Of a DNA stretch of 5,400 nucleotides, positions 527-5,400 are shown piece after piece (positions within the stretch are counted from its first letter, which is position 1; every line of letters starts with the position of its first letter). The DNA comes from a virus. Its lineage: Duplodnaviria; Heunggongvirae; Uroviricota; Caudoviricetes. A program made the position numbers and the translations under genes. A model generated the notes under the pieces. That model had not been told where the DNA came from, searched no databases, and saw nothing but the letters and a program-made list of their open reading frames with translations. The stretch lies in the IMG/VR virus record IMGVR_UViG_2541047758_000012; one strand, 5' to 3'.

Positions 527-547
527 CCGGTCAGCCTGGCTGACCGG
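527..547. promoter_or_regulatory. 21-bp perfect palindrome / RNA stem-loop (9-bp stem, 3-nt loop) in the FII-E intergenic region
   Basis: CCGGTCAGC-CTG-GCTGACCGG, with every position of the two arms complementary. It lies 8 nt after the FII stop and 29 nt before the E start. There is no downstream U-tract, so it is not a canonical intrinsic terminator. Confidence 0.45.
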
Positions 548-851: not shown

Positions 852-1003
852 CGTTTCCAAAAAATCTCTCGGTCGATGACCTGATGGCGGATGTGGCAGT
901 GATATTTCACTGGCCGCCATCAGAACTGTATCCCATGAGCCTGACCGAACTCATCACATGGCGCGAAAAGGCGCTCCGGCGAAGCGGAAACACGAATGAG
1001 TAA
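576..1003 (+). CDS. E+E': Tail assembly chaperone E+E' fusion made by programmed -1 ribosomal frameshift; join(576..830, 830..1003), about 142 aa
   Basis: Slippery heptamer T_TTT_TTG at 824-830 lies in the E frame (GGT TTT TTG). After a -1 slip, reading continues from nt 830 (GTC GCC GAA CTC ...) for 57 codons to TAA at 1001-1003 without a stop, overlapping the T start codon at 996. This matches the known P2 E/E' arrangement, which is analogous to lambda G/GT. Confidence 0.75.
824..830 (+). other. -1 programmed ribosomal frameshift slippery heptamer TTTTTTG (X_XXY_YYZ)
   Basis: Read directly from the sequence: cggTTTTTTGtcg, with zero-frame codons TTT (825-827) and TTG (828-830). The -1 frame is open from here to 1003. 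Confidence 0.75.
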
Positions 1004-3443
1004 CAATGTAAAATTACAGGTATTGCTCAGGGCTGTTGACCAGGCATCCCGCCCGTTTAAATCCATCCGTACAGCGAGCAAATCGCTGTCGGGGGATATC
1101 CGGGAAACACAAAAATCACTGCGCGAGCTGAACGGTCACGCATCCCGTATTGAGGGATTTCGCAAGACCAGTGCACAGCTTGCCGTGACTGGTCATGCAC
1201 TTGAAAAGGCACGGCAGGAAGCTGAAGCCCTTGCCACACAGTTTAAAAACACCGAACGTCCGACCCGTGCTCAGGCGAAAGTCCTGGAATCCGCAAAGCG
1301 TGCGGCGGAGGACTTACAGGCGAAATATAACCGCCTGACAGATTCCGTTAAACGCCAGCAGCGGGAACTGGCCGCTGTGGGAATTAATACCCGCAATCTT
1401 GCACATGATGAGCAGGGACTGAAAAATCGTATCAGTGAAACCACCGCACAGCTTAACCGGCAGCGTGACGCGCTGGCGCGTGTCAGTGCGCAACAGGCAA
1501 AACTTAATGCAGTAAAACAGCGTTATCAGGCCGGAAAGGAACTGGCCGGAAATATGGCCTCAGTGGGCGCTGCCGGTGTGGGGATTGCTGCTGCGGGAAC
1601 GATGGCCGGAGTTAAGTTGCTGATGCCCGGTTATGAGTTTGCGCAGAAAAACTCAGAATTGCAGGCCGTGCTCGGTGTGGCAAAAGACTCCGCCGAAATG
1701 ACCGCACTCCGCAAACAGGCGCGCCAGCTCGGCGACAACACCGCCGCCTCAGCGGATGATGCGGCTGGTGCGCAGATTATCATTGCGAAAGCGGGTGGAG
1801 ATGCTGCGGCTATTCAGGCGGCAACGCCGGTAACACTGAATATGGCACTGGCGAATCAGCGGTCGATGGAAGAAAACGCGCAACTGTTGCTGGGGACTAA
1901 GGCATCCTTTCAACTGTCAAATGATAATGTCGCCCATATCGGCGACGTGCTCTCGACAACGATGAATAAATCGGCCGCTGATTTTCACGGAATGAGTGAT
2001 GCACTGACTTATGCCGGACCGGTGGCTAGGACTGCCGGTGTAAGCATTGAACAGGCCGCCGCAATGACAGGTGTGCTGCATGATGATAAAATTAGGGGTT
2101 CAATGGCGGGGACGGGGAGCCGTGCCGTGGTCAGCCGTTTGCAGGCACCGACGGGAAAAGCATGGGATGCACTCAAAGAGCTTGGCGTGAAAACCTCAGA
2201 CAACAAGGGAAACATGCGTCCGTTGTTTACCATTCTGAAAGAGATGCAGGCCAGCTTTGATAAACACAGGCTGGGAACGTCCCAGAAGGGTGAATACATT
2301 AAAACTATTTTCGGTGAGGAAGCCCTGAAATCAGCGAACGTTTTGCTGGCAGCGGCAGCAAGCGGAAAACTGGATAAGCTGACCGCCACGCTGAAAGCCT
2401 CGGACGGTAAAACGGAAGAGCTGGTTAAAATCATGCAGGATAACCTCGGCGGTGACTTTAAGGAGTTTCAGTCTGCTTATGAGGCGGTGGGGACTGACCT
2501 GTTTGACCAGCAGGAAGGCGCACTGCGTAATCTCACACAGACGGCCACAAAGTATGTGTTAAAACTCGATGGCTGGATCCAGAAAAACAAATCACTGGCG
2601 TCAACCATCGGCCTCATTGCCGGTGGCGCACTGGCGCTGACTGCTGTCATCGGTGCCATTGGCCTCGTAGCCTGGCCGGTTATCACTGGCATCAATGCCA
2701 TCATCGCGGCAGCAGGCGCAATGGGGGCAATCTTCACGACGGTTGGCAGTGCTGTTATGACGGCCATCGGGGCGATTAGCTGGCCGGTTGTGGCTGTGGT
2801 GGCCGCCATTGTCGCCGGGGCGTTGCTTATCCGTAAATACTGGGAGCCTGTCAGCGCATTCTTTGGCGGTGTGGTGGAAGGGCTGAAAGCGGCATTTGCG
2901 CCGGTGGGAGAACTGTTCACGCCACTGAAGCCGGTGTTTGACTGGCTGGGCGAAAAGTTACAGGCCGCGTGGCAGTGGTTTAAAAACCTGATTGCCCCGG
3001 TTAAAGCCACACAGGACACCCTGAACCGTTGCCGTGACACGGGCGTCATGTTCGGGCAGGCACTGGCTGACGCGTTGATGCTGCCGCTTAATGCGTTCAA
3101 CAAACTGCGCAGTGGTATTGACTGGGTACTGGAAAAACTCGGTGTTATCAACAAAGAGTCAGACACACTTGACCAGACCGCCGCAAGGACTAATGCCGCC
3201 ACGTATGGCACTGGTGGTTATATTCCGGCGACCAGCTCTTATGCAGGCTATCAGGCTTATCAGCCGGTCACGGCACCGGCTGGCCGCTCTTATGTGGACC
3301 AGAGTAAAAACGAATATCACATCAGCCTGACGGGAGGTACTGTGCAGGGGACACAGCTCGACCGCCAGTTACAGGATGCACTCGAAAAATATGAGCGGGA
3401 TAAACGAGCGCGCGCCCGTGCCAGCATGATGCATGACGGTTAA
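996..3443 (+). CDS. T: Tail tape measure protein gpT, 815 aa
   Basis: Long ORF immediately after the chaperone genes. The N-terminal about 180 aa is charged and rich in Q/R/A/L/E (coiled-coil-like); the middle is Ala/Gly-rich; a long hydrophobic Gly/Ala/Ile/Val-rich segment spans about aa 533-612. This is the standard tape measure architecture, and the length matches P2 gpT. The start codon overlaps the end of E'. Confidence 0.9.
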   Translation: MSNNVKLQVLLRAVDQASRPFKSIRTASKSLSGDIRETQKSLRELNGHASRIEGFRKTSAQLAVTGHALEKARQEAEALATQFKNTERPTRAQAKVLESAKRAAEDLQAKYNRLTDSVKRQQRELAAVGINTRNLAHDEQGLKNRISETTAQLNRQRDALARVSAQQAKLNAVKQRYQAGKELAGNMASVGAAGVGIAAAGTMAGVKLLMPGYEFAQKNSELQAVLGVAKDSAEMTALRKQARQLGDNTAASADDAAGAQIIIAKAGGDAAAIQAATPVTLNMALANQRSMEENAQLLLGTKASFQLSNDNVAHIGDVLSTTMNKSAADFHGMSDALTYAGPVARTAGVSIEQAAAMTGVLHDDKIRGSMAGTGSRAVVSRLQAPTGKAWDALKELGVKTSDNKGNMRPLFTILKEMQASFDKHRLGTSQKGEYIKTIFGEEALKSANVLLAAAASGKLDKLTATLKASDGKTEELVKIMQDNLGGDFKEFQSAYEAVGTDLFDQQEGALRNLTQTATKYVLKLDGWIQKNKSLASTIGLIAGGALALTAVIGAIGLVAWPVITGINAIIAAAGAMGAIFTTVGSAVMTAIGAISWPVVAVVAAIVAGALLIRKYWEPVSAFFGGVVEGLKAAFAPVGELFTPLKPVFDWLGEKLQAAWQWFKNLIAPVKATQDTLNRCRDTGVMFGQALADALMLPLNAFNKLRSGIDWVLEKLGVINKESDTLDQTAARTNAATYGTGGYIPATSSYAGYQAYQPVTAPAGRSYVDQSKNEYHISLTGGTVQGTQLDRQLQDALEKYERDKRARARASMMHDG

Positions 3444-3457: not shown

Positions 3458-3937
3458 ATGATGCTCGCGTTAGGTATGTTTGTTTTTATGCGCCAGACGT
3501 TGCCACACCAGACCATGCAGCGTGAATCAGATTATCGCTGGCCGTCAAATTCCCGTATCGGTAAACGGGATGCCTATCAGTTTCTCGGTGTTGGTGAGGA
3601 AAACATGACGCTGGCCGGTGTGCTTTATCCCGAACTGACTGGCGGCAAGCTGACGATGACCACGCTCAGGCTGATGGCAGAGGAGGGGCGGGCGTGGCCG
3701 TTGCTGGATGGCACCGGCATGATTTACGGCATGTATGTCATCAGCAGGGTGAGTGAAACAGGGAGTATTTTCTTTGCAGACGGCACACCCCGGAAAATTG
3801 ATTTTACGCTGTCGCTCACCCGCGTTGATGAATCACTGGCCGCGCTTTATGGCGATATCGGTAAACAGGCGGAATCGCTCATCGGTAAGGCTGGCAGTAT
3901 GGCGACTAAATTCACGGGTATGACGGGGGCGGGATAA
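3458..3937 (+). CDS. U: Tail protein gpU (P2 GpU family), 159 aa
   Basis: ATG-ATG at 3458/3461 preceded by a strong SD; stop TAA at 3935-3937. The translation (MMLALGMFVFMRQTLPHQ...) matches P2 gpU from memory, and the gene sits between T and D as in P2. Confidence 0.85.
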   Translation: MMLALGMFVFMRQTLPHQTMQRESDYRWPSNSRIGKRDAYQFLGVGEENMTLAGVLYPELTGGKLTMTTLRLMAEEGRAWPLLDGTGMIYGMYVISRVSETGSIFFADGTPRKIDFTLSLTRVDESLAALYGDIGKQAESLIGKAGSMATKFTGMTGAG

Positions 3938-5100
3938 TGCTGGATGCACTGACATTTGATGCAGGCAGTACGCTGACGCCGGATTACATGCTGATGCTCG
4001 ACAGCAGGGATATTACTGGCAATATCAGCGACCGTCTGATGAGCATGACCCTGACGGATAACCGGGGCTTTGAGGCTGACCAGCTTGATATTGAACTGAA
4101 CGATGCCGACGGGCAGGTCGGGCTGCCGGTTCGTGGCGCTGTCCTGACGGTGTATATCGGCTGGAAAGGTTTTGCCCTGGTATGCAAAGGGAAATTTACC
4201 GTTGATGAGGTTGAACACCGGGGCGCACCGGATGTGGTCACCATCCGCGCCCGGAGTGCAGATTTTCGCGGGACGCTCAATTCCCGCCGTGAAGGCTCAT
4301 GGCATGACACCACGCTCGGTGCGATTGTTGAGGCGATAGCCTCCCGTAACAGGCTGGAAGCCAGTGTCGCGCCGTCACTGGCCGGAATTAAAATCCCGCA
4401 CATCGACCAGTCGCAGGAGTCTGATGCGAAATTCCTGACCCGTCTTGCAGAACGCAACGGCGGTGAGGTGTCGGTAAAAATGGGAAAACTGTTGTTTCTC
4501 AAAGCGGGGCAGGGGGTGACGGCCAGCGGTAAAAAAATCCCGCAGGTCACCATAACCCGCAGCGACGGCGACCGCCATCATTTTGCGATTGCTGACCGTG
4601 GAGCCTATACCGGCGTAACGGCAAAGTGGTTACACACCAAAGACCCGAAGCCGCAAAAGCAGAAGGTAAAACTGAAACGCAAAAAGAAAGAGAAACACCT
4701 GCGCGCACTGGAGCACCCGAAAGCGAAACCAGTCACGCAGAAGAAAGCGCCAAAAGTACCGGAAGCGCGCGAAGGTGAATACATGGCTGGTGAGGCTGAC
4801 AATGTTTTTGCCCTGACTACGGTATATGCCACAAAAGCGCAGGCCATGCGCGCCGCTCAGGCGAAGTGGGATAAACTGCAACGGGGCGTTGCGGAGTTCT
4901 CCATCAGCCTGGCTACCGGTCGGGCAGATATTTACACGGAAACGCCGGTCAAAGTATCAGGCTTTAAGCGCGTCATAGACGAGCAGGACTGGACAATCAC
5001 TAAGGTGACACATTTTCTGAATAATAGCGGCTTCACGACGTCCTTAGAGCTTGAGGTCAGGCTTTCTGATGTGGAGTACGAAACAGAAGATGATGGGTGA
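3937..5100 (+). CDS. D: Tail protein gpD (Phage_GPD / late control gene D family; gp27/VgrG-N-like baseplate hub), 387 aa
   Basis: ATG at 3937 overlaps the U stop codon (ATAATG, 1-nt overlap); stop TGA at 5098-5100. Length and position match P2 gpD. It contains a lysine-rich low-complexity segment at about aa 234-278. Confidence 0.85.
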   Translation: MLDALTFDAGSTLTPDYMLMLDSRDITGNISDRLMSMTLTDNRGFEADQLDIELNDADGQVGLPVRGAVLTVYIGWKGFALVCKGKFTVDEVEHRGAPDVVTIRARSADFRGTLNSRREGSWHDTTLGAIVEAIASRNRLEASVAPSLAGIKIPHIDQSQESDAKFLTRLAERNGGEVSVKMGKLLFLKAGQGVTASGKKIPQVTITRSDGDRHHFAIADRGAYTGVTAKWLHTKDPKPQKQKVKLKRKKKEKHLRALEHPKAKPVTQKKAPKVPEAREGEYMAGEADNVFALTTVYATKAQAMRAAQAKWDKLQRGVAEFSISLATGRADIYTETPVKVSGFKRVIDEQDWTITKVTHFLNNSGFTTSLELEVRLSDVEYETEDDG

Positions 5101-5118: not shown

Positions 5119-5147
5119 TTGTTTTATAAGGATAAATTAACTAAAAT
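5119..5147 (+). promoter_or_regulatory. Candidate sigma70-type promoter for ogr (-35 TTGTTT, 17-bp spacer, -10 TAAAAT)
   Basis: AT-rich D-ogr intergenic region with TTGTTT at 5119-5124 and TAAAAT at 5142-5147, separated by 17 bp. It is positioned so that a transcript would start about 30 nt upstream of the ogr ATG at 5182. This is a hexamer match by eye only. Confidence 0.3.
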
Positions 5148-5181
5148 GGCACCATCAACAAAACCGGAAGAGGTGCTCGCG

Positions 5182-5400
5182 ATGTTTCATTGTCCTTTAT
5201 GTCAGCATGCCGCACATGCGCGTACAAGTCGCTATATCACTGACACGACAAAAGAGCGTTATCACCAGTGTCAGAACGTGAATTGCAGCGCCACGTTCAT
5301 CACTTATGAGTCGGTACAGCGATACATTGTGAAGCCGGGAGAAGTCCACGCCGTAAGGCCGCACCCGTTGCCATCAGGGCAGCAAATTATGTGGATGTAA
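5182..5400 (+). CDS. ogr: Late gene transcriptional activator Ogr (Ogr/Delta zinc-finger family), 72 aa
   Basis: The translation from ATG 5182 (MFHCPLCQHAAHARTSRYITDTTKERYHQCQNVNCSATF...) has a Cys4 motif CX2C-X22-CX4C and matches P2 Ogr from memory. It is preceded by GAAGAGG about 9 nt upstream and stops at TAA 5398-5400. In-frame upstream starts exist (ATG 5146, TTG 5119), but the 72-aa form is the described protein. Confidence 0.85.
   Translation: MFHCPLCQHAAHARTSRYITDTTKERYHQCQNVNCSATFITYESVQRYIVKPGEVHAVRPHPLPSGQQIMWM

Follow-up and report, generated by a model that had tools for sequence, protein, structure and literature searches.

A conserved hairpin between the tail tube and tail chaperone genes of P2-like phages, a homologue of the phage 186 element annotated as partial terminator tI

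The tail operon and the hairpin in the FII–E gap

The window, i.e., the whole 5,400-nt stretch of DNA that was analysed, carries the late tail operon of a P2-like phage or prophage, and its DNA is 95–97% identical to P2 and other peduoviruses. FII, the upstream, high-copy gene, encodes a protein identical to P2 FII, and E heads the low-copy downstream genes (E, E+E', T, U and D). The genes are arranged as follows.

1–519, + strand: FII, major tail tube gene (open reading frame; Pfam PF04985 Phage_tube, 2.3e-60)
517–519, + strand: FII stop codon TAA
520–575: FII–E gap, 56 nt
576–851, + strand: E, tail assembly chaperone gene (open reading frame; Pfam PF10109 Phage_TAC_7, 3e-12; P2 annotation)
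996–3443: T (open reading frame list; Pfam confirms a tape measure in the window)
3458–3937: U (open reading frame list)
3937–5100: D (open reading frame list)
Window end: ogr, start of the gene only (open reading frame list)

An earlier, sequence-only reading of this DNA had placed a 56-nt gap between a tail tube and a chaperone gene, and both genes are supported by Pfam and by identity to P2. In the mechanical list of open reading frames ogr begins at TTG 5119. The start in the P2 record is an ATG equivalent to window position 5182, and the −35 and −10 signals of ogr in that record correspond to 5119–5148; the longer ogr frame (window 5119–5400 region) is an artefact of the rule by which frames were called.

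As for transcription, the P2 record places one mapped start for the operon before FI (“encodes FI, FII, E, E', T, U, D”) and one terminator behind ogr. The P2 reference record has no annotated feature in the FII–E gap. A sequence scan of the gap found no promoter-like site, and the TGT-N12-ACA dyad of Ogr/B/Delta-type late activators has no match anywhere in the window, and a late-activator site or internal promoter in the gap was therefore rejected. Because E, T, U and D are essential and, according to the P2 record, have no promoter of their own, polymerases must be able to read through whatever lies between FII and E.

What lies there, starting 7 nt past the FII stop codon, is CCGGTCAGCCTGGCTGACCGG (527–547). 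The palindrome had been described as 9 + 9 nt around a 3-nt centre, which holds and even extends, as DNA, to a perfect inverted repeat of 10 + 10 nt around one base. As RNA, the same segment is predicted to fold into a 9-bp stem containing seven G-C pairs, closed by a loop of 3 nt, at about −16 kcal/mol, and the hairpin is found in both the minimum-energy and the centroid folds of 500–600. The gap can be divided into the following elements.

520–526, + strand: pyrimidine-rich spacer UUUUCAU from stop codon to stem (7 nt)
527–535, + strand: hairpin 5' arm CCGGUCAGC
536–538, + strand: hairpin loop CUG
539–547, + strand: hairpin 3' arm GCUGACCGG, in which A543 pairs with U531
548–555, + strand: weak tail UUAACCCU at the U-tract position, two U and then C-rich
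556–575, + strand: A-rich E leader with a UUCAGA motif and the Shine-Dalgarno region GUGAGAA (about 565–571)

The stem is of the type seen in intrinsic terminators (G+C-rich, 5–14 bp, loop of 3–8 nt). A U-tract directly 3' of the stem is missing in the window and present in some relatives; the tail after the stem (TTAACCCT) has no U-run, in agreement with the earlier reading, and a consensus terminator scan of the window did not flag 527–547. No other perfect hairpin of at least 9 bp with a 3–8 nt loop exists in the whole window. The chance expectation is 0.14 such hairpins per 5,400 nt, with at least one in 11% of dinucleotide-preserving shuffles, and would be about 0.0015 if scaled to the 56-nt gap. 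Taken on its own, the palindrome is mildly unlikely and only suggestive; the hairpin is clearly non-random because it is conserved across relatives, as described below. Perfect pairing is a property of this variant and not of P2, where a G at the position of A543 gives a U·G wobble. In IMG/VR the perfect A543 variant is the commoner form, and the exact 21-mer occurs in at least 120 contigs as compared with 20 for the P2 form.

The terminator scan did flag a second hairpin at 803–824 (GCTGGCCGGTAAGGTGGTCGGT), followed by a T6 run at 824–829 (region 803–830). The −1 frameshift from E to E' slips on this T-run (the frameshift site of the P2 record corresponds to window position 831), and the stem is thus placed directly upstream of the slip site. 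In its 5' part the stem reads GCTGGCCGG, which is also the sequence of the 3' arm in the P2-type FII–E hairpin. Inside the E' extension (881–890 and 914–923), CTGATGGCGG/CCGCCATCAG form a perfect inverted repeat of 10 bp around a 23-nt loop; at about 50 nt past the frameshift site, it is too far away for a classical frameshift stimulator. Six further copies of the word CTGGCCGG are found on the + strand of the window (804, 1542, 2672, 2780, 3611 and 4378) and none on the − strand. These extra GCTGGCCGG/CTGGCCGG sites are common to P2, absent from 186, and located in Leu-Ala-Gly or Trp-Pro codons; across 80 loci, CTGGCCGG is found 82 times on the + and 11 times on the − strand, dominated by one conserved coding site in FI. 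The word excess was rejected as part of the FII–E element, and is probably a coding or compositional effect.

Conservation of the hairpin among relatives

The comparison covered 80 loci that encode FII relatives (65–100% identity), taken as one genome per species, to which P2 and 186 were added. Of 81 prophage junctions, about 79 have a G+C-rich hairpin at 4–10 nt, mostly 5–8 nt, past the FII stop codon, and the diverged junctions come from Enterobacterales prophages. Among 63 unique hairpins the spacer between stop codon and stem measures 4–10 nt in all but one and 5–8 nt in 57, and among relatives it consists of 78% T+C. The gap itself is 49–67 nt long in all but four of 82 unique junctions. 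The loop is free to vary in sequence and length (3–10 nt), with the arms remaining complementary. One hairpin (L034) has an internal mismatch, and the hairpin is absent in Yersinia aldovae (L057), where the tube–chaperone gap is 26 nt, and in the more distant Burkholderia phage KS5 (L086), where it is 32 nt; these two loci could serve as natural hairpin-less controls for expression studies. Among 5426 complete E. coli genomes, 1550 carry the junction. In Rfam, no relevant family was found for the hairpin even at E values up to 10.

The sequence-only reading had proposed that the FII–E region be aligned across P2-like phages to look for compensatory changes, and these are indeed found. In an alignment of 72 sequences, which are not phylogenetically independent, the seven core pairs form in at least 93%, two-sided changes are seen in 8 of 12 pairs, and the observed covariation score was reached by none of 500 shuffles. 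Pairing also depends on the register, with 81% of cells paired as aligned versus 14–44% when the 3' partner is slid by 1–3 columns. Two-sided change is mostly confined to the outer pairs, as exemplified by columns 14:39 that hold C-G, A-U, G·U and G-C, and A-U to G-C swaps in the core are limited to a few lineages (L059, L076 and L078). At columns 19:34, which correspond to the U531–A543 pair of the window, UG is found in 37, CG in 31 and UA in 3 sequences; P2, 186 and most aligned relatives have G at the position of A543.

The pairing is better preserved in the sense RNA than in its complement. Between one and three G·U pairs are present on the + strand in 45 of the 63 unique hairpins. In an independent search of both strands, the + strand gave the better hairpin for 52 of 72 sequences and the − strand for 15, with mean energies of −17.1 and −9.0 kcal/mol, respectively. 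The frequency of the majority base is 0.93 in the stem core compared with 0.77, 0.76 and 0.64 at codon positions 1, 2 and 3 of the adjacent FII C-terminus, and the loop and flanks are near saturation among relatives. The tight conservation of the core probably derives largely from the double constraint on a G+C-rich stem. In the 8-nt tail, relatives have 41% T, 38% C, 16% A and 5% G, with a median of three T; at least five T are present in 12 of 63 unique hairpins, and three loci of this closer set (L031, L039 and L068) have a hairpin with a U-run resembling canonical terminators.

In more distant P2-like phages, with tube proteins that are 34–56% identical, hairpins of unrelated sequence occupy the equivalent site.

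Klebsiella phi13.2: hairpin arms CUGGCGCG/CGCGCCAG
SEN8: hairpin arms GGCGCGG/CCGCGCC
Ralstonia RsoM1USA, Stenotrophomonas Smp131, Burkholderia PhiBP82.2 and Klebsiella Kp4846-1: hairpin after the tube gene
Mannheimia 1127AP1: AAAAGCCCCUU...AAGGGGCUUUUU with a U-run; the record annotates a TransTermHP-predicted terminator at the tube junction
PPpW-3: hairpin and then a U-run, ...CCGGCCUUUUCCCC
Escherichia phage ECOO78: hairpin and then a U-run, ...GGCUGGCCAUUUUC

As judged by these sequences, the structures at the tube–chaperone junction form a range, with a hairpin and U-run at one end and, at the other, a hairpin followed by a weak pyrimidine tail. ECOO78 (L095) is a Jilinvirus outside Peduoviridae with a tube protein that is just 34% identical. 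Its hairpin, GGCCAGUC-AUUU-GGCUGGCC followed by AUUUUC, has the GGCCAG/CUGGCC core of the P2 group, which can be either an ancient retention or a convergence.

Some observations concern individual records. In Enterobacter sp. EA-1 (L081) the FII frame breaks off about 65 nt short of its usual end, with hairpin and E start intact, reflecting either a decaying prophage or a sequencing error. The assemblies labelled Chryseobacterium sp. 18061 and Vagococcus sp. WN89Y (L005, L070 and L079) contain enterobacterial P2-like prophage sequence, and the L005 junction is identical to that of a Citrobacter locus (L006); contamination or mislabelling of these assemblies is likely.

The closest annotated counterpart is found in phage 186. 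Its record (GenBank U32222.1, 15906–15932) lists a “terminator, tI; partial terminator of pJ transcript” with the sequence TGACCGGTCAGCACTGCTGGCCGGTTA. As for the window hairpin, tI belongs to an equivalent late operon, is situated between the FII homologue I and the E homologue H at an equal distance from the stop codon, and is followed by a C-rich type of tail (UUACCCCC). The stem core of tI, CCGGUCAGC/GCUGGCCGG, is shared with P2, and the window differs from tI here by the loop and by one base, A543 for G; written as DNA, CCGGTCAGC-ACT-GCTGGCCGG in 186 corresponds to CCGGTCAGC-CTG-GCTGACCGG in the window. Both match CCGGYCAG-N3-10-CTGRCCGG, which is found once per locus. The stem of tI is extended to 12 bp by UGA/UUA, whereas the window stem has 9 bp that are perfect and free of wobble. 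At the sequence level, this comparison establishes the hairpin, its position and its conservation as a sense-strand RNA element, as well as its homology to the annotated element of 186. Other features in the 186 record carry the label “predicted”, but tI does not. The missing label hints at transcript data behind the annotation, which would otherwise be a statement of the depositors only, and transcript mapping for tI would not by itself separate termination from processing. A search of the open full-text literature found no paper that describes the hairpin or maps the tail-operon transcripts of P2 or 186.

A probable leaky terminator and its alternatives

Because pairing and position are conserved with a variable loop, G·U pairs occur that only the sense strand tolerates, and unrelated stems take the same place in distant phages, the comparative data point to the palindrome being an RNA hairpin on the sense (+) transcript and not a binding site on DNA. 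The reading that we prefer, with a probability of roughly 0.6, is that of a leaky intrinsic terminator that ends the sheath–tube gene pair, a counterpart of 186 tI that would also cap and protect the FI–FII message. An RNA hairpin acting either as a partial attenuator or as a 3' stabiliser of that message had been put forward in the sequence-only reading, and such an element is supported by the sense-strand conservation, by 186 tI and by the Mannheimia annotation.

We infer 3'-end formation in this phage, its efficiency and the effect of the ribosome according to the following scheme. Transcription would start at the late promoter PF, and the palindrome would act in the sense RNA. As polymerase leaves FII, the 9-bp G+C-rich hairpin would form 7 nt past the stop codon, some polymerases would be released there, and the remainder would read through into E-E'-T-U-D. 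Termination would be partial because of the poor U-tract (UUAACCCU), and also because the stem is so near to the stop codon that a terminating or trailing ribosome would hinder its folding. E. coli terminators placed a few base pairs past a stop codon are strongly repressed by the ribosome, and their efficiency grows with distance, as for tR2 (PMC4824070); applied by analogy, the same may hold for the FII–E hairpin. On the released FI–FII transcript the hairpin would cap the 3' end and shield it from 3' exonucleases, the outcome being more FI-FII message than E-T-U-D message.

Such an excess fits the composition of the virion, for which 192 gpFI sheath subunits, 6 gpU and 3 gpD have been counted (bioRxiv 10.64898/2026.09.14.750843). 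The tube has the same helical geometry as the sheath, and the demand is for about 190 sheath and tube subunits and only a handful of U and D. A protein ratio of 30- to 60-fold is beyond what partial termination alone can produce, and translation rates must contribute. Points against a terminator are that the tail contains two U and then AACCC, and that L057 and KS5 do without a hairpin.

A possible, though less probable, account is that the hairpin is purely a 3'-end stabiliser, with all polymerases reading through and no real termination taking place. An endonuclease such as RNase E would cut downstream of the hairpin, in the A/U-rich RNA that precedes the E ribosome-binding site, and the hairpin would then block 3'-to-5' exonucleases so that the FI–FII half outlives the E-T-U-D half. 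Such an element is expected to be a stable hairpin directly after the more abundant gene within one transcription unit, and that is what is found here. The stem is strong and conserved, a proper U-tract is missing in the window, in P2 and in 186, and the virion stoichiometry is accounted for equally well. Moreover, the leader downstream of the hairpin is rich in A and single-stranded, and a CUGAA/UUCAGA motif recurs in it some 20 nt ahead of the E start codon, being present in 35 of 80 unique junctions compared with 3.8 in shuffles, a count inflated by kinship. The motif could be a candidate processing site or part of the E translation-initiation region. However, the cleavage site is putative and the motif count suffers from the kinship just noted, the depositors of 186 name the homologue a partial terminator, and true U-runs after the stem in several relatives, as well as T-enriched tails (41% T), would be needless for a pure stabiliser. 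The terminator and stabiliser models are not mutually exclusive.

We also consider, more speculatively and as a rather doubtful proposition, that the hairpin is a sequence-specific RNA element read by a host or phage factor or nuclease, or else a terminator with its leakiness set by how near the ribosome trails the polymerase. This is suggested by the conservation of the stem GGYCAG/CUGGCC (0.93 versus 0.64–0.77 in adjacent codons), by the recurrence of the core in a Jilinvirus with a 34% identical tube protein, and by the position of the stem, which is held 5–8 nt away from the stop codon between pyrimidine-rich flanks and lacks a U-tract. If true, a sequence-specific or ribosome-tuned hairpin of this kind would make the tube:chaperone ratio depend on the cell's translational state.

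It is very unlikely that the hairpin acts through translational control, in which hairpin and flanks would hide the E Shine-Dalgarno region and lower E translation relative to FII. The minimum-energy fold of the window does pair UUUUCAU (520–526) with GUGAGAA (565–571), closing a larger structure around the hairpin, and the region is 0.32 unpaired compared with 0.45 in the control. Across 82 unique junctions, however, mean openness is 0.58 versus 0.53 in shuffled controls, the region is more paired than the control in just 26, and the flanks are poorly conserved. Occlusion of the Shine-Dalgarno region was rejected as a general mechanism, being present in the window fold but not conserved.

Equally hard to sustain is the alternative raised in the sequence-only reading, that a dimeric protein binds the palindrome as double-stranded DNA; the binder could be a regulator or a nucleoid protein, or the site could be a restriction-type target. 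The palindrome is perfect in the window, and the half-site GGYCAG/CTGRCC is very well conserved, but a dimer site needs fixed spacing and symmetric half-sites, neither of which is required by a sense RNA hairpin. The spacing between half-sites ranges from 3 to 10 nt, and most copies, including those of P2 and 186, are asymmetric with a T opposite G, which is tolerated solely by RNA pairing on the sense strand. Distant relatives retain a hairpin and not the sequence, the TGT-N12-ACA box is missing, and the motif occurs once per phage segment examined, all of which disfavours a DNA site. Finally, an equally good hairpin arises somewhere in 11% of shuffled windows, but a chance palindrome without function has a negligible likelihood and, as far as sequence analysis reaches, is refuted by the comparative data, with position and pairing conserved across about 80 diverged loci and beyond the neighbouring codons, and other hairpins taking its place in distant phages.

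The element is real, looks functional and is very widespread. A leaky terminator with a protective stem would help to explain how about 190 sheath and tube subunits are produced alongside few downstream tail proteins from a single promoter. There is also a gain for annotation, as P2-like records, including the P2 reference, are without the feature that the 186 record has, and a caution, since automated terminator finders miss the hairpin because of its poor U-tract. A further unannotated structure is noted in the P2 record, where the 99-nt gap between M (small terminase) and L (NC_001895.1, 5901–5999; L082) contains a long and very strong hairpin of −46 kcal/mol followed by CUUUUC. This hairpin follows the capsid gene block and may likewise serve as an attenuator or stabiliser inside an operon.

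Relation to known terminators and intercistronic hairpins

Through its 186 homologue, the hairpin is already known as an annotated partial terminator, and partial termination is an ordinary mechanism for unequal expression within an operon. Canonical intrinsic terminators, such as those found after ogr in P2 and in Mannheimia 1127AP1, share with the window hairpin a G+C-rich 9-bp stem with a short loop, located on the sense strand after a gene. Unlike these, the window hairpin has no U-tract (UUAACCCU, compared with UUUUUUGU after the ogr hairpin), and it lies inside an operon with essential genes downstream, which is why it can be at most leaky.

Intercistronic hairpins that stabilise mRNA and set unequal expression in operons are known from the malE–malF REP sequence of malEFG, from Rhodobacter pufBA and from papB–papA in papBA, and the pure stabiliser model would make use of the same mechanism. 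The FII–E hairpin differs from REP-type repeats in that its motif is not dispersed; a single copy each is present in the window, in a 27-kb segment of P2 and in a 24-kb segment of 186, and there is no Rfam match. A dispersed repeat of the REP/BIME type was rejected in view of this single copy per phage segment examined. As for the malE–malF, pufBA and papB–papA hairpins, a stable stem-loop separates the gene of an abundant product from genes of low-abundance products in one transcription unit, and the same outcome would be expected, namely more message for the upstream than for the downstream genes.
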